Source: Leucoraja ocellata
Lineage: Eukaryota
Length of the DNA: 64,000 bases
Reading direction: 5' to 3'
Assembly (NCBI GenBank): GCA_036785375.1
Contig: JAWMAR010000023.1
Span: forward strand, 9,796,001 to 9,860,000
Numbering within the stretch: the first letter of the stretch is position 1; the number at the start of each line of letters is the position of its first letter. This document shows positions 5,036 through 24,600 of the stretch, piece by piece. The notes below the pieces were generated by a model. It made no database searches and was not told where the DNA came from. It saw only the letters and a list, made by a program, of their open reading frames with translations. Made by a program: the position numbers and the translations under genes.

Positions 5036-7810
5036 TGATTGACCTACTTCTGCTCATATTTTCATTTGTTCGTCATAGAAACACATCTCTTTTTAATAAA
5101 GATCATCCATCCAGACAGAACAGTTGGATATCTAGCTATTTGAAGACCCATCTCGTCATCACACAGAGATCTTGGGAACATCAGAGATGTTCAAAAATAA
5201 CCGTGAAGGATTTCGAACATTATGCAAAATATAATTCACCAAAAATTAATGTGGTACATTTACATATTTACACATGGTATAAAATCACAATTGACAGCAA
5301 ACAAAGTCAGTTAGGAACAAGTACACATGGTTTCCACAACACAAAAGGGTAGTTGCTGAGAAACTACAAAAATACTGCTGGGAAGCAATTACTGGATTTG
5401 TTACAAAGCATCATTAAGTATACATGCAAATGAAACATAAAGCTCGGTTGCAGTTCTGTTTAAGACTGGCACAATCTCCCTATATATAAGCCTTTTAAAT
5501 GATGCAATCTGCACATGCTATTTCTTGTTTTTTTTAAAAGGGATAATTTACAGATTAATAAAAGGACAATACAAAAGGTGGAAAAGAACAGTAGTTCACC
5601 AAGGGATGTAAAACTGTAAGCATGTGAAAGCTACAAAAGGCAATTTGGGGTTATCACTACGAATAATAAAGCAAAATGCAAGTCATACACAGGAAACTCC
5701 ACGAAATTCTTTCAAATTTGCCGTGTTGTGTATTTAATGGAAGTGCTCAGGTTACAAGATTATTGCCAACTTTCGCAAATAAAAAACTGCAGGGGTGGAC
5801 CATTTGGCCCCTCCTGTCAATTCCAGAATTCAATTAGTTCACAGTTGATCTTTTCAGCACGAATGTCTAATCCCGTGATTCTCCCAATATCTGAAATTCT
5901 CGACACAAAGATTTATAAAGGTTTAATAATGATGAGAACCAATATTTGAATCTCAAAATAGTTTTTTCCAGCGTACGTTAGGTCTACCATAGATAATTCA
6001 GAGAAAAACACTTCAGAATAATGCCGTCCTCCCTGTAGTCTTTGCAGATGGCGTCCAGTAGGGAGTTTTCTAAAAATACTTGCGACCAAAACGAACACTA
6101 ATGTCAAGCACACTGAATACCGCGCAGAAAAGGAGCTCGATCATATTTCATTTGTAAGTTTCTCAATAATTGTTGATTGGCAACAAATAAACAGAACATA
6201 CGACATTCAAAGCTCTACAGTGATTAGAACACGCACCACCCCTCTCGTTAGTTCAGCTTTTATATTGCCACTGAATATACTGCGTGTCATGAGACAAAAG
6301 GCAATCTTGAGTAAAGGGCTTGTGTGTGCTGATTGCATAACTCAATACATAATTGCCACCTTTGAGAAGAAAGCTTGAGTCATCTACTTTCAGTCTGTCC
6401 ATCTCTCCCCACCCTGGTATCTTGCACCATAGAATTTCACGCCCAGGGCCAACGGCAAAGAAATATAACCTTGATCCTTGATTAATAAATCCAGAGACCC
6501 AGCAATAAACCTTTTACAACCAAGATTCATTTCAGGCCCAGCTTTGTAATATGCAATTAATTTCCAACATGTCGAAATACATGAGATATAATTAAGACAT
6601 TACCCAACAAGAAAAAAACATGTGCCCGTCGAAATGGGTTTCTTGAAACCGCCAGAATTTGGCTATTGCACCATTTTCTCTTTTTTTTTTTGTTTGACAC
6701 ATCAACTGGATTCACAGTTCGCAATTTCAATCAGCATTTTAAAACGTAACCCCATAGCAGCTACTCGCCAGAAAACCAGCCTTAACATTATCCCTCCAAC
6801 CCCAAATGAGATTTCTGGAAACGCTTAAGTGATTTTTTTTTGTGTCTCAAATTTACAGCAAAATCGTGAGAAACATGTGACCCATCAGGCTTTTGTCAGT
6901 GCTTGTTTTTGTCAATGTATGTTTGAATGGTGACGTGATGCTTAAATACAAAATTTAATTAAAAAATATATTTTATACTGGTGTCCTTTCTGAAACACTT
7001 ACTGTATTGTGGCATCACTACCCAAACTGTTGTCCTTTCCCCAAGAGAATTCTTTCCTTCTCTCCAACCCGATATAAATGTAACATATCCTAATTTTAGC
7101 GATCTTGGAACAGTTGACCAAGTGTAGGTTGGACGCAAAGCCAGTTTTGTTTTAATTTAGTGCAATGACTAAACGAAATGGCATCTTCCAAGAGAGATCA
7201 CGTTTTTTTTTTGTTTAAAAGATGGCATAGGACCGTGAGTGCTTGTTATTCCACTATTTTTAAGCCACAAAGTAGTCTACATCTCTGGTGTTCCAGCAGC
7301 TCTCTCTCCTTCTCCCTGCTGGGGCAGAGGACGGGCTGCCACAAAATGGCGGACTCTCCAGAACTTTCCATCGCCTTAAAATGGCGCCCGAGTGGAACAA
7401 GGAGAGGGGGGGTGGGGGGGGAGGGACAAAGGGCTGAGCATGGACGCCACCAACACGCCGCAGTTTTCTGACAAAGCTATTGGTATCGAGCTTTTGCTTT
7501 TTTTTTTCTCGAAGGTTGTATTTCCTCATTTCGGTGATCCAAACAAAAAAATCTTCCCATAATCGTTCAAAGCGTCCAGAATTATAGTGTGAGTCGAAGG
7601 AGGCGCTTATACACACGGGTTTTAAAAAATATATAAAACGTCTATTCTTTTAAAGGATGAAATAAATAGAGGTATCCCTGGAATTGCGCTCTCAAAAGAG
7701 TTCCTCTCTATTCGCCGTGCTCCTGCACCGACGGCTGCAGCCCTTCCAGAACTTTCCTCCCAGTCACTGTGGCGAGTTGGACCAGCGCGACTCGGCACAC
7801 TCCCAGCCTC

Positions 7811-8180
7811 TGCGCACGCGCACTTCTCACTCGCGTCGAGCACTGGGGGGGAGGGGAGGAGGCTGCACATTCCGCGCACGCGCACTTCTCACTCGCGTCG
7901 AGCGCTGGGGGGGAGGGGAGGAGGCTGCACATTCCGCGCACGCGCACTTCTCACTCGCGCCAAGCGCTGGGGGGGAGGGGAGGAGGCTGCACATTCCGCG
8001 CACGCGTACTTCTCACTCGCGTCGAGGGCTCGGTCGGTGGGTGGTGGGGGGGAGGGGCTGTTTATTCCGCGCACGCGTATTTACTACTCTGGGAGGGGGG
8101 GAGGGAAGAAGGGCTGCACGTACCGCGCATGCGGCCGCGGCCGGCCTGCCCCAGGCGGCACATTCCGCGCACGCGCAGTC
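7811..8180. repeat. GC-rich promoter minisatellite, 62-bp unit (about 4 good copies plus 3 degenerate)
   Basis: GCGCAYGCG core recurs at 7812, 7874, 7936, 7998 (exact 62-bp period), then at 8069, 8125, 8167. Confidence 0.9.
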
Positions 8181-8480
8181 GCCCGTGCTGACGGGGGGGA
8201 GGGGGCGGGGTGGGAGCGGGAGACCGGCGGGGGCGGTGCGTCGCAGACGCAGGCGCAGTGGCGGTACATTCCCCCCCTGTCGGCTGGGAAGCTGACGGTG
8301 GATTTTCCGCGCGTGCGCGCTGCGGCGCGGAGCCGAAAGCGAACCCGGGGCATCGTGGCGCTTGCGCGCCCGCCCGCCCGCCGTGGAGGATTCGGCGCGT
8401 GCGCGGTGGGGCGAAGCCTCGGGTCTCGGGACGGACTGTTAGCGTCTCGAGGAAAAAAAAACCGCGTCAGGTCGGGCGGC

Positions 8481-8549
8481 CGAACGAACGAACGAACGAA
8501 GGAAGGAAGGAAGGCGGGCGAAAACGACAGAGAGAGAGAGAGTGTGTGC
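8481..8549. repeat. Compound microsatellite (CGAA)n(GGAA)n and (GA)n(GT)n in the probable 5' UTR
   Basis: Directly visible. Confidence 0.85.
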
Positions 8550-8674
8550 GTTAACCTCATGGTGGGATTTTACCTCACGGATTAACCCCCGGCCTCGGGG
8601 GCCGACAGACGCCAACAACCACCACCCCCCTCCGCCGATCCCAGACATTCACACAGTCCTATGACTCGCTAAGG

Positions 8675-8757
8675 ATGGTACGAGAAACCAGGCACCTCTG
8701 GGTGGGGAATTTGCCGGAAAATGTCCGCGAAGACAAGATTATCGAACATTTTAAACG
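8675..8757 (+). CDS. SPEN: SPEN coding exon 1 (start codon; N-terminal part of RRM1)
   Basis: Translates to MVRETRHLWVGNLPENVREDKIIEHFK(R), the vertebrate SPEN N-terminus. ATG in AGGATGG context; donor CG|gtaaga; 83 nt, phase 2. Confidence 0.97.
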
Positions 8758-11544
8758 GTAAGAAATGAAGTCAAAAGACTCTTCGGTGTGTGGGAAGGAG
8801 CCCGGCCTCCAGCTTGCTTGGGATGAACTGGAACCGGAGAAAGTGGCCGGTTGTCTTGCTGCAGCTGTGTGAGTGAGATCGGGACACACACACACACGCT
8901 GCTGGTTAAGTTCACATCCTTCACTCCGCTAGTAAAAGGGGTCACAGGCGGCCCTACGGTATTCCTATTGTTGTGTAGCAATGCCACAATCTCGGGCAAA
9001 CTGCTCACTCACTGGTGTCAGTCACCCCAACAGCTTTTGAGCCTCTCCATTCCACAGGGAAGAAAGATCGTCCACTCGAAATGGGACACAAACACGTTTT
9101 CTCTCTTTTGTTTTGTTATTCTAGCCCGTGACTTAGCTAAATGGCGATTGCGTGATTTTCAAAGCATCGCGTTTGCAAATGAAGTCAAGTTAGTGTTGGA
9201 TGTGTGAATAGTTTGGGGAAGCTCCAGCCCCATGAGAGGGGAGGGATGTGAAGGTCTGACTATGTTTTAGACACATGGGAGCTGTAATGGAGGCCAGGGC
9301 TGTCTGTGGGAAACGGGACTGGGGGAAGGGTGTCCAACACAACACAACACATTTGCTGATAGCAAAGGTCCTAACTGGCGCTTATCTGCGATCAGAAACT
9401 GTTTGACCCTGCATAGTAGAAAATAAACTTACAGGCTCACGATACACTTCTGTGAGCAGGAAATATGTGCAACATGTCATTGTAATTGCTTTTAATTTTA
9501 AAAATAACGATTTGATGTGAAGATTTAGGTACCTTGCTTTAAATAGCTTCTAGAAAAGAGGCAGCGATCGAGTTGCAATTAGTTAAAGGTTCGAAATTGT
9601 TCGCCCTATAGTGAAGAATTGGAATTTGGAAACTACCTAATGTATTGTACAAAGCATGGTTACGTTGTGGAAGCTGGTTGCAAGTGGGCATACTGTTTGT
9701 GTCTAACTTCAATTGTTATGTGTTCAACGGTGTTGTTGATGTGAAAGGAAATGATAAAATTGGGATACTGAGCGTAGCGTGAGTAAAATGGCGGATCCCA
9801 TTCTCGGCATCAAACCTCACGTTTGTCATTTGAAACATGTACTTTGTCGGAGGATGTGTAGTAAAATCTAATCTCCCACATTGTGTATGATTCTGTGATT
9901 TCCATATATGTAATAAAGTGTTTTGGGAAACATTATGCGTTAAAGATGCAGTATCTGCGTCTTTGATCTGAATTACATTAATTTTAATACAAAGGCATGT
10001 CCGATCTATTGGAAGATTTATCACAACTATTGAAGTACAGAAGCTATGTCAATTGAGGTTATTATTTAAAAAAAATGCGAAAAGGCCCGTCAGTTAATTT
10101 TAGGGAAACATATTTATGAATTCCAAGGTGCATTAGTGATTTAACTCTGACTTCTTTGTTTTAATAAATGAACCTGTTAATTAACCTTCCAGGTTTGTAA
10201 CAATCCATGGAAGATCTCGAGCAACCTAGTTGACTTGATTTGCACCGTTTCGACCTCGTGTTTAAAATGCTGCACCTGTCTTGAAAATCATTACCTTTAT
10301 TGACGATTTATGTTGTCAAAAATAAAAGAAAAACCAAGGGTTTGGGCCAAAATGCAGACGGCATTGTTCTAACACCTCTAGGTTTCGCTTCTTGTCAGGC
10401 GTAGATATTGAGTAGGAATCAGTACTTGAAAGTGATGTGTACGATGGAAAACAAATGTTAGCAAGGGGATCCATTATATTTTGGCAGCGTTCCGTGTTTT
10501 GATAAAGGATTTTGGTAAGAAACTTCTATATTTTGGGTTGATGGTGAAGTTGCCCAGTTACAGTTGCTTGGTGATTTATTCAAAGGCTATTAGATTGTCA
10601 GTCTTAAATTAGATCTAGTTACTGGTTTACATCTAACAGTATAGTTTGTGGAAAATCTTATATTAAGTACATAGATCATTGTACATGATCACAGTGAAGA
10701 CAAACTTCATTTTTAGTTCCCATTTATAACCATACAAATCCAACCAAATATTACAATCATTTGTTTGATTTTTTTTTTAGGGACATGAACATATTTTGGT
10801 GCCTTTTTCCAGTCCAAAACCCCCCTAAAATTAAAAACATTTTGAATATGCATTTAATTGGCATAATGGTTACAAGCACTGAAATCGGTTACGGTTTGCA
10901 GAATCTGCTGTCTATATTTATATTTAATTATAGAAGAGCCTTGTATTTCTGGTATAACAGTCTGAAATGCAAATAAGCTAGTTCCCACCCCTCCCCCACC
11001 GGAGAACGCGAGAAACGCGTAAGGGGGAGGGTGCAAAAGGTTTCAGATAGAAACGAGCTGGAACAGGGGAAACATACAAAAAAACCTGTGGATTGTGAAA
11101 CAAAGCTTTTGCTAATTCACGCTGTTTCGATATTTGGTGCATTTAATATTTATATTTCATAACAGCAGGGAGAATTATTAGGAAATCATTAGCTTAAATT
11201 GAATCTATGTTAGATCGGTGCGTTTTTCTTCCCTCGTACACCCCAGAGTATAATTAGAATATAGTAAAAAGTGTAAGTAAAGCGGGCGATGTCAGCAAGG
11301 ATGGTCTGGATGCTTTCTCCAGCGAAAAGAAGATCTGGCATTAACATTTCAAATCGTTTAAATGTTCTTGGACACAGCAGTGTTGTCATATTTTTGGGTG
11401 TGTAAACAGTGTGGACTATGATGAGGGCGTGGTCTCCTTGTGATCTGCTTTATTTTGCCAAAATAAGCCAACGTAGTTAACTAAGACTCAATTGTAGTAG
11501 CCGTCTAATTGGAACAACTAAAAGCTCACGCCCCTCCCCTGACA

Positions 11545-16300: not shown

Positions 16301-18646
16301 GCAGCATTCGCCGAAGTCTTTGTGAAAAGATTGCATTTTACTGCCTGCCGTTTTCGCAATTGCAGCTACAAAAGCATGGATTAGATTAATTAAAATTTGT
16401 ACAGTTTGCATGTTGTCCTTATTTGACAGTACAGTTAACTATGCAACATAAATTGAACTATCGTAATTATACATATTATAATTCAACTACAAAATAAATG
16501 TATTCTTAATAAAACACACACAGCTTCCATGATTCTCCAAACCAGTACCACCCCCTTCCCCAATATCGCCAGGATTGGTGATTTTCACCTAACATCACGT
16601 CTTGGGCTGGGAAATAGAAGGAAGAGTTGGGGTGTTACAATTGATCTCAGTCATCTGGGTTTGAAAAGCATAAATTAGGTTGTACTTTTGTACCGATTAC
16701 TCTATAATGTCACCAGGAAATGCATGCAATGGCCTTTATATTAGTTTAGGGATTTTGAGTTATTAAATAAGTCTATTTGGTCTGACATCCTAAAATAAAC
16801 TTTATAGGTTCCCCAAGTCATCTGTGGCAAATCATTTCTGGACCACCAGCTAAAAGATGCACATTTTGAATACAACAATGTAAAAAGATGTTGAAAATAA
16901 GACCGAACTTAAATGTATTATCTCTCATTTTGATAAAGCACCAGAATGTATCAAAGAATAACTGACAGTGTTTAATCGCAGATTGGTTACAGCACAGGAG
17001 GGGTTCATTTGGCTCCTTGTGTCTATACTGGCACCATGTGAGAACATCCTACTCTCCATATTTCCCTTAGTCCTGCAGATTCTCTCCTACAAAACACAAG
17101 AATTCAAGACCAGGATTGGCAGTTTGCAGAGGAGAAACAATTAGATGGAAAATTCAATATTACACTTAAGCTTTAAAAATCGTAGTTGTATGTTCCGTTG
17201 TATTACTATTTATGTTTACTTTTATAATGTACATTAACACCAAAGTTGTTACCTTCAGTTTAGCATTCTTTTTCTACCAAAGTCGAACATTTTGATCATA
17301 AGCCATTTTCTAAACTTCAGTAATGTGGAAACCGAAAATCTTATTTTATAGATAACATAGATGGAATGCTTAAATTTCTGTTTCGGGGAAGATTCAATCC
17401 CATTGATGTTTCTCCATTTAGGTTAAATAAAGAGTCAGCAGGGTGAATTATTCCTTTGGAATTTAATTAGTGCAGCTAATGAGCATGATGCTAAATCATT
17501 AACCTAATGCATCAGTGGATAATTCACCAGGGAATGGGAATATGAAAATTACTTGGGACTTCAAGATTGCTGATGGATGAGATGAGATACAAGGAACTGC
17601 AGATGCAGGTTTACAAAAAATAAAAAATGCTGCAGTAACTCAGCGGATCAGGAAGCTTCTTTGGAGAACATGGATAGGTGATGATTTGTGTCGGGACCCT
17701 TCTCCATACAATAAGATATTGGTGGAACTGGAGCTCTGCTTTTGAAGATGAGAATAGGAACAGGAAAATAAAGCATGAATGAATTCAGTGGTGCGCTTCA
17801 GTCAATCTTGGAAATAATAGCTGAATACTGTCAGCGTGCTTTGTCCAAATTTCTGCATCTGGTTTAAAAGAATCCAGTTAATTTAAGTACAAGGTTTATT
17901 TGAGACAGTGTAAATTAGGATTTTGTACCAGTTTTGATCATAATACATTTACTCCCTCAATCCAACAACATTGCGTATTCATCAGTATCATGGACTAGAA
18001 TACAGAAGATATCAATTGTCATCAACAGCAATTGAGAATCAATTATTCCCTAATCTCCATTTCTGATCTTGCCAAACCACATATATAATGCTTTCTTCAT
18101 GATGTTGGGTATACTTTATGAAATATGGTGTAGCTGCAACCCGAACAGCGTAGTTTACATCGAAAACACAAAAAATAAGTTAATTGTAGAATCATATAGC
18201 ACGGAGACTCAACTCACGGCATTCATGGCAGTCATCAAACTCCACACTTCATTTTCTGTTCTTGCATCCCCATCAACCTCATCCGCTCCCTGATTTTCCT
18301 ATTTCCTACCTGGTGTCATATAGACATACAGTACCTGTGGGAGAAAACTGGAGTGTTGGAATTGGGGGGGGGGGGGGGGGGGGGGGGGGAGAATGGTGCA
18401 CATCAACCTTACACACACGTCATACCAACAACGCACAACCTCAGCATCAAGTAACGAGTCTCTGGAGCTGTAAGGCTGCAGCACCAACTGCTATGCCAAT
18501 AGTGTGTTTAAATTTCATTCTAATCTTTAAACAATTGTTGAAAATAATAGTTTGAATATTGGCATAATATGTAACGTGTTGATTGTAAAATGCCTTGGTT
18601 AGTTTGTATTTTGCATAATAATTTCCCCCCCCCTTTTGTTTTTCAG

Positions 18647-18967
18647 ATATGGCCGAGTGGAAAGTGTCAAAATTCTTCCCAAAAGGGGCTCAGAAGGTGG
18701 AGTGGCAGCCTTTGTGGATTTTGTGGACATCAAAAGTGCACAGAAAGCGCACAATTCTGTCAATAAAATGGGAGATCGGGACCTTCGAACGGATTACAAT
18801 GAGCCTGGCACTATTCCAAGTGCTGCCCGGGGATTAGATGATACCGTTCCTATAGGAACTCGTACTAGAGAGGTTTCAGGGTTCAGGGGAGGTGGTGGGG
18901 GGCCAACATATGGACCGCCACCATCACTACATGGACGGGAAGGACGTTATGAACGGAGACTTGATGG
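18647..18967 (+). CDS. SPEN: SPEN exon 2 (rest of RRM1 and Gly/Pro linker)
   Basis: tttcag|A acceptor; YGRVESVKILPKRGSEGGVAAFVDFVDIKSAQKAHNSVNKMGDRDLRTDYNEPG...YERRLDG; donor GG|gtaagt; 321 nt. Confidence 0.97.
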
Positions 18968-21225
18968 GTAAGTTCCAAGGTTTCTCTAGGCAGGATTTTG
19001 ATAAATAGTGTGAGAAGCAGCAACTCATGTTTAGGTTCCCCAGATGGATTTAAGGAGGAAATCTGTACACTCGTGTCGTTATTGGATATGGAAGAGAATT
19101 GAAACCAGTAGCAGCTCTGGCCTCTTCGCAGTGGATCTATTCTGCAGCTGGCTGGATGACTACTCCTGGGATAAGTTTGGTTAGTGTGATGGAAGGTTTC
19201 TATCAGTTACTATGGAGTTAACCCTCGAAATAAGCTTCCCTTTTCTCCCTGGATTGCAAGCAGTTCCCTCTGGATGGATCCCTTCGATTGAGTGGCATGA
19301 TATTACATCCTGGTACAACCAACCTGAGGAATACTATGGAATTACTAGACCTACAGTTTCAGGCAATATTGAAGTGCATTGAAGACTTCCCGCAGTATCA
19401 TTGGCTTTGGTTTAAATGTAATATATTGATGCACGTTCTTTGGATATGAAATCTTTCGATGAAGATATAGTACTCTTTGATCTACCACCTTGAAGGATAT
19501 TACAGCTAATAATTTTCAACGAATTCATGGAAAGGAAAACTGAAGAATTGATGAAGTAACATATACAAGGGTCTACATATCTGTACTGTTTATTTTGATT
19601 CACCCCGATTGGATCTTATGGATTTTTCTGGTCTGACGGTTAAATTATAGAAGCTTACAAACATTTGGAATTTTATTTTCCCGCATAATGGAATGAAGGG
19701 CATTATCACTTCAACGTGGGATTATATTCATCTTAAAGTAGTTGTATGGCAGATTGGATTACCTGGTTTGTGTTTCATACTCATCTTGATTCTACTTATT
19801 GTACCAGTGGACTATCAAACAAGGGACATCTGTTAGTGGATACTTTACATTTTAACTTTCAGATCAAAAATGAAAAGATTTTAAGACATGGCAACTGACT
19901 GCTAGAAAATGGATATTATATGTCTACTACTAGAAGAAAGCACTGTGCTCTGGGAGTAACGGGTATAGTTGCTTAATATCGACTCGGATTGGGATACATT
20001 TATCTACATCCATCTGAACGCACTCCGCATCTCAGAAAGGTCTTGGGGTTTGGGAGTTACTTTAAACTTTGGGAGCTATCTGTATGAGGCGAATGTACGT
20101 AACACTGGCAATGGAAATTTATCTTTCTTGGGCGTTCAGTTTTCTTGATACAATCCCCAAATCAATGCGGCACTAGCACTATCCGAAGTTGGATTACCCC
20201 TTTAAGAGGGGACCAAATTGGGAATGTTTGTACACTTTTCTCTCCCTAGATTTAATTGGGATTTAGGTCGTGTTTACTGCAGTCTAAAAAGGTTGGTATG
20301 CCCTGCCATGCGTATCTTAGCCCCTCTTCTAACCCAGTCAACCCTTTCTTTCCACTAACTCCAGTAGTCATTAGCACTGCTAAAAGTTCAATCAGCACTT
20401 AGCCAATAGAATCTCACTGTCTTGCACCTCTGTGAGCTACTTTGCCTGTCTTTGTCTTTCATTGATTAGGAATTTGTATTTTTTTTTGTGTGTCAGCTGA
20501 TGGCAATAATGCTTTGGAATCAGCTTGCTTCTTTTCATTGCTGAAAGGTCAGTGTAAAATGATTCCACAGTACATTATAAGCACAGTTCTATACCGCCTT
20601 CATTAAGTCAACTTGACTACGCATAGCTTAGTGGCTTTGCTTCTCGGTGTCTTCTGTTTTCTGAATCTGTAGAATCAGCAAAATAGTAATACTGTTTTAA
20701 TATCTTGCATGGAAGAAATTTAGAATGGGAAGGGATTAAAAAAAAAACCCGAATGGAAACAAAACAGTAAAGATTGAGTAGAGTTATGTAAATTCCAGAA
20801 TTTAAAATAACTAGATTTCTGGATATTATGTATTTTACTGAGGTAAATTACTCAGCGAATTAGTTAGCTTTTGGTAAGTCAGCTTCTACAATAATCCTTT
20901 CCTGACTATACCTGAGAATTGGGAAATAAAAGCTTAGTAATTAGTCTAATATCAACTGCAATAGGAAATTAATAAGCAATGGTTTACTGTGAAATATAAG
21001 CATTGGAAGAAAACAGTCTATTTTTTTTAACAATAATAGTTACTGAACACAATGCTTTTGCCAATTTTGTAAATGTTTCCATATAGTCGCTATTTAAAAT
21101 TCAAGTGCTTATTTTGCCAGTGTTTAATGGGGGAAATTCGGGGATATTTCAGCTATGTGGATGATGCGTGACTGATTCTTTGTTTTCCTTCTTTTCCCCC
21201 ATCCCCTTCCCCAAACAAAACACAG

Positions 21226-21696
21226 GGCTTCTGACAACCGGGAGCGTACTTATGATCATAGTGCCTATGGACACCACGATCGTACAACAGCAGGGTTTGA
21301 TCGTCCCAGACATTATGAACAGGATTACTATAGAGATCCTCGGGATCGAACTATACAACATGGAGTTTATTATGGGTCAAGAAGTCGAAGCCCTACTCGA
21401 TTTGAAGCTCATGATCCACGTTATGAACAAAGAGGGAGGGAACAGTTTGCAATATCAAGTGTAGTACACCGAGATCTCTACAGGGAAGATATTACTCGGG
21501 AAGTAAGAGGGAGACGGCAGGAAAAGAACTATCAGCACAGCCGAAGTCGATCCCCACATTCCTCACGGTCAGGAAACCAATCCCCACAGCGACCTAGCCA
21601 AGGACGGCCACGGCGATCTCCCAGTGGCAGTGGGTCCCGGAGTAGGTCATCAAGCAGTGATTCAGTCAGCAGCAGCAGTAGTACCAGCAGTGACAG
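21226..21696 (+). CDS. SPEN: SPEN exon 3 (Arg/Ser/Tyr-rich region)
   Basis: cacag|G acceptor; ASDNRERTYDHSAYGHHDR...SRSRSPHSS...SSSSTSSDS; donor AG|gtaggt; 471 nt, frame preserved. Confidence 0.96.
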
Positions 21697-24600
21697 GTAG
21701 GTGGAGAGGAGCGTACCACAAATAGTTTCCATCCACGCATCCCATTTGACGTCAGAGTAGATGGGATAATTTGGTCCTTTTGCTTGTCATCAGAAAAGGT
21801 GAAGTGTGTAAGTTGGCAAAACTGGGTATCTCTCTTTATAGTACCGTTTTAATCCAGAGAGTTTTCAATTATTTAAAAGAAAGGAATGAATATTTAGCAC
21901 AAACCCACCAAAGCAGTTTTTGTGCCACTCAAATGCAAAATTAACGTACTGTTGTTATTAGGATGTTAATGAAATTGCAATGGAACAGATGTATCATTTA
22001 TGCCATTTCCGTGAAGGAGAAAAAATACCTTTCCAAAAGGGTAAATCTGAAAATAGCATTTGTGTAGAGCATGTGGGTAAATTGATGATGGTAGTAGCAA
22101 TCTATTGTGATAAGATAATTCTGTAAGCTTGAGTATGAACTTTTTCCCCGCCTGTGACAAAGTGGCAACAGTGTTTACACATTTGGATGTGAATCCTCAC
22201 CACAATGACATTCCATTCAGGATGGTCATCGCATCAAGGTCGTTGCATCTGTTTAGTCTATTCAGATGCATTGTAATTAGGAGGGGGAAAAATCAGTTTT
22301 TCAGTAATTTCTAGTATTGCACATCACTGTGTTCATAATATTAGAACCTTTTATCTTTCCGACTTTGAATATTGTTAGTGGCAGGATAGCAATGTCAAAT
22401 TTCTATACATGTATACAAACTGAGAAACCTTTTTTTCCCCCTACTTGGTCATACATAGCAGCCAATTGTTGATTTGCAAAAACAATTGCATGTTTTGTGA
22501 GAACTATTAGCAGAAAGATCAAAATGTTTTGCCTGGTTTTACTGAACATTTCAATGAGAAAGTATAACTTGTATTATTCCATGATAATCAAATGTGCGTT
22601 TTTGTAATGTTTTATGACGTTATCTCACAATTGGAAAGATTGTGGCATTGTGCTTGATCCCTGACAACTAGATGCATCAGATCCTAAATGTACACAGTGA
22701 AAGATTTACATTTCCTACTGATCATTTAAGTGTAGATTATTTTTAGAATTATTTTTAATATTATTTTACTTGTTGCATTCTGCTGCCTGTAATGGCAATG
22801 TGTGTGTGAGTTCACTCGGCTTGAAGCACTGCCGTGATAGAATCATTAGTTAGTAAGTCTACTTTAGAAGGCAAAGTCCCTTTCATTCCTCAATTTAAGT
22901 AGTGCCTTTGATAATTTATTTTGTAGCATGGTAAATTAGAACTATGCACAATATTCATTTTGTAAACCATTTTGTTGCACTGAAAAGTGCAATGACAATA
23001 AATTGAATCCAATCCAATTCCAAATGAGATCTATCCAAGGTTCTCCACAGGTTTAATGGAACTATTTAATTACTTTACTTTTGCTCCTTAGTTTGGTTCA
23101 AGGTACAGTGAAAAACTTTTTTGTTGCATACTCTCCAGTCAGTGAAAAGACTATACATGATTACGATCAAGCCGTCCACAGTGTACAGATACAGGATAAG
23201 GGAATAACATTTAGTGTAAGATAAAGTCCGATAAAAGATAGTCCAAGCGTCTCCAATGAGGTAGATCGTAGGTCAGGACTGCTCTCTAGTTGGTGATAAT
23301 ATGGCTCAGTAGCCCAATAATGGCAACTGAGCAGTGGCAGTGGTTTGCCAGAACTATGCAGTCTTCATTTACCTCATGTCTAAATTATCTATTCTAAAAT
23401 TCACTTGCTCTTTCCACTTAAGTTCTTCAGTTTATGTGCTGGTAACACTGTTGGTATTGATTATTATTGCTATTATTAAGTTGTATTTCTGTTTGCCAAG
23501 TCCAAATTATTTTTGGAAATGGTAAACAGTAGTGGCTCTAATGCCAATTGTTGTGGCACACTCCAACTTTCCACCATTCTAAACCAAAATCTTTTAACTC
23601 CAAAGTCTTCTGTTTTATCACCATTTAATATGAATTCTGCTACTTGACCTTCGGTACTTATCCGAGTTGTAAGTCTCGTATACAACTGGATTTTAGCGTA
23701 TCTAATTATATTACACCTACTTAGTACCTTAATCTACTGCCTATTACTTCTACATAGAATAGTCAAGCATGACTTGCCCTATTGAAATCTGTGCTAATTT
23801 GTGTGTCAGATTTTTTTTTTTGCCACGTAATTGAGCAAAAATTCCATTGAATCAGGACTTGAGGTCAGCAAAGGTTTGAAAGTGGTTCCCATCAATGAGA
23901 ATAAAACACCTCAAAAATATCTAGTGATTTTTGTGGTGAGAACTTCCTTTTTAATGCTGGCTGCTTTCAGTTGAAATTTCCAAGTAAATTCATTATGTCC
24001 AGCAACTTTGATATCATTTGGCTGAACAGACGATCAAATTAAAGAATTTTAGAGTCAGACAACCAGGAAGCAGCCTTTCAGTTAATTTTAGTGTAGTGTT
24101 AAACAAAAATGAATATGATACCATTAAGGATGTGGCTAAAATATCCTAAACTTTAGAAGCTTTTTTAATTCCCATTTATTTTAAGACATTTGTCGTGTAA
24201 GGAAATTACAATAATCATTGTGCTGTAATTATAATTACAGTTTAGTCATGACGCACTATGATCTCATGTAACTGGGTATGAAATGTTGTTGCCTAAATTT
24301 ACATCCGATCAAGCAATTACTCTTGCTTGCGATGGAGCAGGCTGCAATCAGCAAATAAGAAAATACACTATCACTGGTAGCAAGTTTGGGAATCTCACAG
24401 TACACTGTACATGTGTGAAAATTCTAAAGTTCACGTTAGTTGCATGGATTTGTGAATATCTACACTTGCTGAGATGTGATAATAACCACTAAATCTCTTA
24501 TCTTCATTAAGCTCACTACTTTTGAATTCCTGATTCGATTTTCTCACTGGAGTATAGCAGAACGTTATCTGTCTGCAATCCTCTGACACGATTTCCTTTC

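Follow-up and report, generated by a model that had tools for sequence, protein, structure and literature searches.

What is the role of a long, strand-biased block of UGGA(U) motifs at the 5′ end of intron 2 of SPEN? The window analysed here (the whole stretch of 64,000 nucleotides) carries the 5′ part of this gene, and a sequence-only reading of it had proposed that the block is a multivalent platform for RNA-binding proteins or a detained-intron element. The evidence considered below points, with good though not full probability, to a poison, stop-containing extension of exon 2 that ends at a conserved distal donor. Positions are those of the window; the exons, the intron and the intronic elements described all lie on the + strand.

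Exon 2 (18647–18967) encodes, according to Pfam and protein matches, the rest of RRM1 and a Gly-rich tail, and ends in phase 2. It matches RRM_1 of Pfam (E 3e-4) and 31 proteins at 57–95% identity, which are mostly named SPEN, MINT or Msx2-interacting proteins; identity to the named SPEN proteins is 93–95% in bichir, bird and mammal and 68–89% in teleosts. A comparison of exon 2 with PDB gave no match. Exon 3 (21226–21696) encodes the RS-rich region; over 124 aa, its two best matches among named SPEN proteins are 78–79% identical. Intron 2 (18968–21225; 2,258 nt), the splice boundaries of which were read from the sequence, opens with the proximal, productive 5′ splice site GG/GTAAGT (18968–18976), present as GGGTAAGT in 4/4 loci (the window and three further vertebrate loci described below). 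This site encloses an in-frame stop: translation past the exon 2 donor meets TAA at 18969–18971. The product of SPEN is an RNA-binding regulator, the kind of host gene required for a poison (AS-NMD) segment. In a sheep SPEN database isoform (P0124), exon 2 is joined straight to the exon after exon 3, and the RS-rich exon 3 is skipped; skipping of this kind may be another regulated splicing choice next to intron 2.

The motif block was recounted between 18968 and 20291, where 23 TGGA, 14 TGGAT, 2 TCCA and 1 ATCCA are found, so that the earlier hand count of about 23 TGGA on the sense strand, 14 of them TGGAT, proved exact. These copies form a dispersed array (19045–20194; 14 TGGAT among 23 TGGA) with a median spacing of 73 nt and without a tandem unit or a stable fold. 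Two nulls were used, namely 1000 dinucleotide shuffles and 542 non-overlapping strand-specific windows from 39 sampled genome stretches (390 kb). The expectation of about 5 TGGA from base composition agrees with a hand value of 5.7, but a fair expectation lies between 8.2 (genome) and 10.0 (shuffles). The count of 23 TGGA is not reached in any of the 1000 shuffles; it is reached in 1/542 genome windows, and sliding windows hold up to 26. The count of 14 TGGAT, compared with 3.36 ± 1.76 in shuffles (0/1000 as high), is matched by 0/542 genome windows (maximum 10), 0/6726 sliding genome windows (maximum 13) and 0/90 other windows of the 64 kb (maximum 7), and TGGAT is the first of 1024 pentamers in the block. 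The k-mer enrichment thus holds against shuffles, genome windows and the rest of the window; the true signal is the pentamer TGGAT, and TGGA by itself is less unusual. The scarcity of TCCA remarked upon earlier is seen in the count of 2 copies, but as a depletion it is insignificant (136/1000 dinucleotide shuffles at ≤2). The strand bias itself was upheld (TGGA 23 vs TCCA 2, binomial p 2e-5). The density of the array drops sharply past the distal donor, with 14 TGGAT in 1,324 nt before it and 2 in the 934 nt after it; by word count these 2 are the only copies of the residual intron (20292–21225).

The claim that intron 2 is free of recognisable transposons was borne out by 0 BLAST matches to the 390 kb genome sample or to the remaining window, the library being of low sensitivity. 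Samples of introns 1 and 3 gave 23–183 BLAST matches each, compared with none for intron 2, and 18391–22986 is the second-longest run without repeat matches in the window. The longest such run (5043–11523; 6.5 kb) takes in the SPEN promoter and exon 1 and reaches into the first part of intron 1. A tandem repeat with a unit of 62 bp (3.5 copies that are 95% alike; 7812–8030) lies upstream of SPEN exon 1 (ATG near 8675), where the sequence is GC-rich. In the 3.44 Gb genome the block has one match place, as found by a search that skips common words. YTH-domain genes occur as near-identical pairs on different contigs (C14/C1987 and C45/C71), and the SPEN block was matched once; the pairing suggests that the YTH-domain contigs are haplotype duplicates retained in the assembly.

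Several simpler identities of the block were rejected. A tandem repeat was dismissed, there being no tandem array in the block, and so was a coding block, the longest sense-strand ORF being ≤71 aa; one antisense ORF of 107 aa lies at the block and overlaps exon 2. A conserved RNA structure was rejected as well: fold z values range from −0.8 to +1.7, none better than shuffles, the covariation term is +2.34 and compensatory pairs number 1/19. The predicted accessibility of TGGAT sites (0.11 vs 0.15 on average) is not higher than elsewhere. An Rfam search of the window returned 0 matches, and no conserved polyadenylation signal was found in the block.

Further SPEN loci were obtained by a metagenome scan with exon 2, which returned 10 loci. 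The three full-length ones (L002, L003 and L004) were used; in the remaining 7/10 the match is confined to the first 53–60 residues, and these were excluded from all counts. The peptide of L003 (bird-like) has 100% identity to bird SPEN, and those of L002 and L004 have 99% and 100% identity to two different percomorph SPEN proteins. By these peptides L002 and L004 are read as two teleost SPEN paralogs, and they may derive from one fish, since they have a common assembly prefix. The three loci provide an independent test, because the motif was picked in the window. After exon 2, TGGAT occurs 14 times in the window and in L003, 13 times in L002 and 14 times in L004, with an expectation of 3.1–3.5 and 0/1000 shuffles as high in each case; its rank among the 1024 pentamers is 1 in the window, L003 and L004 and 4 in L002. 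Summed over the four loci, TGGAT exceeds the genome background 7.1-fold, compared with 0.6–2.5-fold for the remaining 15 NGGAN words, and GGAGGA is present at most once per locus. In L003, too, the density falls past the distal donor, from 14 TGGAT in the 1,298 nt before it to 2 in the 1,482 nt after it.

About 115 nt past its distal donor, the contig of L002 (L002:3615-5797) runs into the last ANKRD13D exons (94% identity to percomorph proteins); this is either an error of assembly or a genuine fusion of a truncated teleost spen paralog to ankrd13d. The L002 sequence past the distal donor was excluded from the boundary count. The L004 contig stops ahead of any distal donor, and the donor is thus seen in 2/3 outside loci.

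The check for cross-vertebrate conservation, on which the platform proposal had been made to depend, gave a TGGAT excess in 3/3 outside loci and end elements that align in 2/3. The block body is collinear with that of L003 (z 6.3 by segment-shuffled controls) and is not alignable with the fish loci (z 0.2 and 0.5); the block bodies of the two fish paralogs give no alignment to each other. Since the same excess is found in blocks that do not align, the motif has been kept through sequence turnover. Single TGGA positions kept in comparison with L003 amount to 11/22, which is not clearly above the controls (mean 7.6, maximum 13). At the proximal end, a conserved flank (18968–19198) contains patches of 81% identity over 89 nt and 75% over 69 nt to L003 (BLAST and alignment). 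What is conserved is the motif content together with a short element at each end, and not a sequence that can be aligned over its whole length.

The second end element, the distal one (20185–20483), aligns with L003 at 77% over 314 nt (BLAST E 1e-59) and with L002 at 80% over 99 nt (5e-14), the latter alignment spanning window positions 20241–20335. Its invariant core has the same order in the window, L003 and L002: a pyrimidine tract with TAG, 42–43 nt, and then AAAAG/GTTGGTATG. The distal 5′ splice-site candidate AAAAG/GTTGGT (20287–20300, last exonic base 20291) is invariant as AAAAGGTTGGTATG in 3/3 aligned loci and has a second GT at 20296. Its agreement with the donor consensus is moderate (6/9); better-matching unconserved GTs are located deeper in the intron (7/9 at 20843 and 20874, and another at 20548). 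Extension of exon 2 to the distal donor would add 1,324 nt in the window, 1,301 nt in L003 and 1,818 nt in L002. The acceptor-like pyrimidine tract with TAG (20235–20249), 42 nt upstream of the distal donor, is likewise invariant in 3/3 aligned loci (TCTCCCTAG). The segment between them (20250–20291) is a candidate micro-exon or decoy exon, whose length is 42 nt in both the window and L003 but 43 nt in L002. It is open and in frame in the window and L003, but the codon registers differ, and its conservation is at the level of nucleotides, not of a coding micro-exon. A little downstream of the distal donor, CTAAC and ACTAAC occur at 20329–20359; the second is extended to CACTAAC, after which come pyrimidines and CAGTAG (up to 20362). 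This stretch is shared with L003, and L002 has CTAAC alone. These motifs we take to be branch point/acceptor-like or bipartite QKI/SF1-like. Searches of the genome-contig and viral-contig collections for the donor pattern gave 0 stretches each. Sequence runs compared with intron 2 and the start of exon 3 gave 0 joints in 4/4 runs (filtered records); the raw RNA run among them contributed 0 reads, and two presumed-RNA runs yielded 3 short contigs, all in the block and none in the distal intron or exon 3.

Use of a distal donor in this intron has been described for mouse. Wei et al. (2021, PMC8327914) list Spen intron 2 among alternative 5′ splice sites and report m6A peaks within it; m6A-bearing alternative exon parts are termed 'poisonous' by these authors (PMC8327914). 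The LeafCutter Spen cluster in that report consists of two junctions, chr4:141517318:141522072 and chr4:141517318:141520859 (PMC8327914), which places the alternative donor 1,213 nt downstream of the normal one. The PSI of the shorter intron is given as 0.337 in the control and 0.167 after METTL3 loss, with p 0.002 and adjusted p 0.156 for the cluster (PMC8327914); by these reported values the distal donor accounts for about 34% of nascent mouse junctions in the cluster. We infer that the mouse cluster is the intron 2 event and that its donor is the conserved distal element. Under this assignment of the cluster, the offset of the distal donor in the same intron is alike in the two species (1,324 nt in the skate vs 1,213 nt in mouse).

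Because the array, the conserved donor-like element and the mouse event come together in one intron, the block is probably a poison extension of exon 2 of considerable age. This reading starts from what is observed, namely the TGGAT excess, its presence in 4/4 loci, the conservation of the distal element and the in-frame stop; the distal donor is presumably used in the skate too. In the proposed mechanism SR proteins would bind the 13–14 UGGAU copies on the nascent RNA and, once bound, would favour the distal donor and help to define a 1.6-kb exon. In the RNA spliced at the distal donor, translation would end directly behind RRM1, and such an RNA is predicted to undergo NMD or to be retained; the stop lies 1,320 nt ahead of the distal donor, well over the 50 nt required for NMD. 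The outcome would be a lower output of full-length SPEN. SPEN and the m6A machinery, both reported on SR-protein-rich RNA, could tune the choice of donor and may also damp transcription. That SPEN itself, drawn in by SR proteins, would close a feedback loop at the block has a little less than an even chance of being correct. Besides the moderate donor match and the adjusted p of the mouse cluster, points against the poison extension are that 0 splice junctions were found in this organism or its relatives (filtered sequence runs), and that the conserved acceptor-like TAG is superfluous in the model. As regards the original proposal of a platform or detained intron, a conserved multivalent element in the gene of an RNA-binding protein is supported by 3/3 loci, and in mouse SPEN is reported to bind its own mRNA (PMC7282817) and its loss to increase Spen expression (10.1101/2025.05.21.655143), but an alternative-donor extension is better supported than a simple detained intron.

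Candidate readers of UGGAU could be sought among SR proteins, since the word fits both the SRSF9 site CUGGAUU and the SRSF1 motif (U)GGA. SRSF9 directly binds CUGGAUU in hnRNP A1 pre-mRNA (PMC6101530, citing an earlier study); the same source places this site in an intronic context and reports that deletion of a similar motif left one SRSF9 function unaffected. SRSF1 binds (U)GGA clusters, which is reported as activating exon inclusion, and the U preceding GGA is stated to be immaterial to its binding (mCross, 10.1101/428615). In the four loci, T follows TGGA in 55/105 cases (p 6e-12) and precedes GGAT in 55/84 cases (p 5e-8). Selection on both flanking U's makes SRSF9, or some further protein, a better fit than SRSF1 alone; the latter by itself does not account for the conserved U's, the one before GGA being immaterial to its binding. 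By analogy with these known sites, SRSF9 may tentatively be put forward as the reader, at somewhat short of even probability, and SRSF1/4/5/6 would be a more doubtful choice.

The same array could act first of all on transcription. In this rather unlikely reading, nascent UGGAU copies would gather SR proteins, and SPEN would be recruited to its own locus as it is by Xist Repeat A, the chief output being transcriptional repression or premature termination and the use of the distal donor a side effect. It agrees with the reports that SPEN loss raises Spen transcription, that SR proteins recruit SPEN to Xist and that SPEN peaks at target genes coincide with SRSF1, SRSF6 and SRSF9 signal (Trotman et al., 10.1101/2025.05.21.655143). 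SPEN RRM2-4 has been found on mouse Spen mRNA (Carter et al. 2020, PMC7282817), and nascent human SPEN resembles XIST in k-mer content, though solely when the cut-off is set at its loosest (PMC13370960). The published binding is not placed in intron 2 in the available text of these reports, however, and the intron is not named by Carter et al. there; the block is without tandem GC-core/U-spacer units, and recruitment leaves unexplained both the donor that is invariant between fish and amniote and the thinning of the array at that point. Cis-silencing is compatible with the poison extension, and both may act together. A detained intron built on a decoy exon is improbable. Here the 42-nt segment 20250–20291 would pair unproductively with the intron ends, and the whole intron would be kept in the nucleus, or the segment would be used as an occasional cassette. 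Its acceptor- and donor-like flanks, invariant in 3/3 aligned loci, would be accounted for, and the intron exceeds 1 kb as in the decoy model (PMC7373989). The mouse cluster as reported, however, consists of two junctions with a common acceptor and has no junction from exon 2 to a micro-exon; moreover, the array lies on one side only, and the segment, in differing codon registers in the window and L003 and 43 nt long in L002, is not a conserved coding micro-exon.

Control by m6A in the first place, with UGGAU secondary, has been assigned a slightly lower probability still than the decoy exon. METTL3/RBM15 methylation and its reading by YTHDC1 would then set the choice of donor, as could be expected from the m6A peaks of mouse intron 2 and from the halving of distal-donor use by METTL3 loss (PMC8327914). 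The sequence of the block argues otherwise. The m6A motif DRACH is depleted in the window (17 vs 28.5) and in L003 (13 vs 24.0); in the fish loci it is neutral, and a count as low as that of the window is found in 4/312 background windows. METTL3 methylates the A of AC, and UGGAU does not contain AC; GGAT outnumbers GGAC 84:18 across the four loci. Around this genome's YTHDC1-like gene, a 50-kb stretch holds ≤6 TGGAT per kb and no comparable block. Nevertheless, a few methylated sites could be enough for m6A control. Neutral composition or a decayed repeat is very improbable: TGGA counts of 23–26 do occur elsewhere in the genome, but the same pentamer tops orthologous and paralogous blocks that cannot be aligned, the block is single copy and its ends are conserved.

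Compared with known systems, the poison extension of exon 2 is closest to the alternative donor of mouse Spen intron 2 (PMC8327914), which concerns the same gene and intron and has an extension of 1,213 nt, compared with 1,301–1,818 nt here. In the available text of that report the event is explained by m6A, without mention of a UGGAU array or of conservation beyond mouse, whereas DRACH is not enriched in the present block and the element reaches ray-finned fish, an amniote and this genome. AS-NMD in conserved segments of SR-protein and other RNA-binding-protein genes (Lareau et al. 2007, cited in PMC8327914) has in common with it the type of host gene, a stop-containing alternative segment and deep conservation. 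The SPEN block differs in not being ultraconserved: alignment is confined to its two ends, and in the 1-kb body the motif persists while the sequence turns over. The decoy exons of OGT intron 4 and SF3B1 intron 4 also have a conserved internal acceptor/donor pair in an intron of more than 1 kb, but the reported mouse junctions indicate real use of the distal donor, and the SPEN array is one-sided.

Like the block, Xist Repeat A (10.1101/2025.05.21.655143) offers SR-like motifs in a multivalent arrangement close to the 5′ end of a nascent transcript; further resemblances are a locus repressed by SPEN and an association with the m6A machinery. Unlike Repeat A, the block has no tandem repeat or GC-rich cores, is AT-rich (39% GC), lies in an intron of a coding gene and is present in fish. 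We know of no Xist in fish. The hnRNP A1 element bound by SRSF9/SRp30c is CE9. Its core word is UGGAU as well (PMC6101530), but it is one short intronic element, as opposed to 13–14 dispersed copies in SPEN.

The splicing event has already been published for mouse; its age and its conservation at the level of the motif appear to be new. In literature searches, no paper turned up that describes the UGGAU array of SPEN intron 2, its persistence in blocks that no longer align, or conservation of the donor as far as fish. A wider and more doubtful proposal is that the UGGAU block could be the ancestral RNA landing pad of SPEN, a module resembling Repeat A that predates the split between ray-finned fish and tetrapods. 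It would have been maintained through turnover of UGGAU and not through sequence that can be aligned, and its reader would be SRSF9 or the N-terminal RRM1 region of SPEN itself; it would combine a poison donor with cis-silencing of SPEN, in a circuit later borrowed by Xist.

SPEN is a dosage-sensitive protein and the silencing effector of Xist. It represses itself, and the cis element responsible is not defined in the literature found; the block offers a bounded candidate of 1.3 kb. One pentamer and one invariant donor can be named, both easily mutated in mouse ES cells. The data suggest that the conserved input is the binding of SR proteins, not the density of m6A. Kept in both teleost paralogs, the block is a clean case of function-like conservation of pre-mRNA without alignment.
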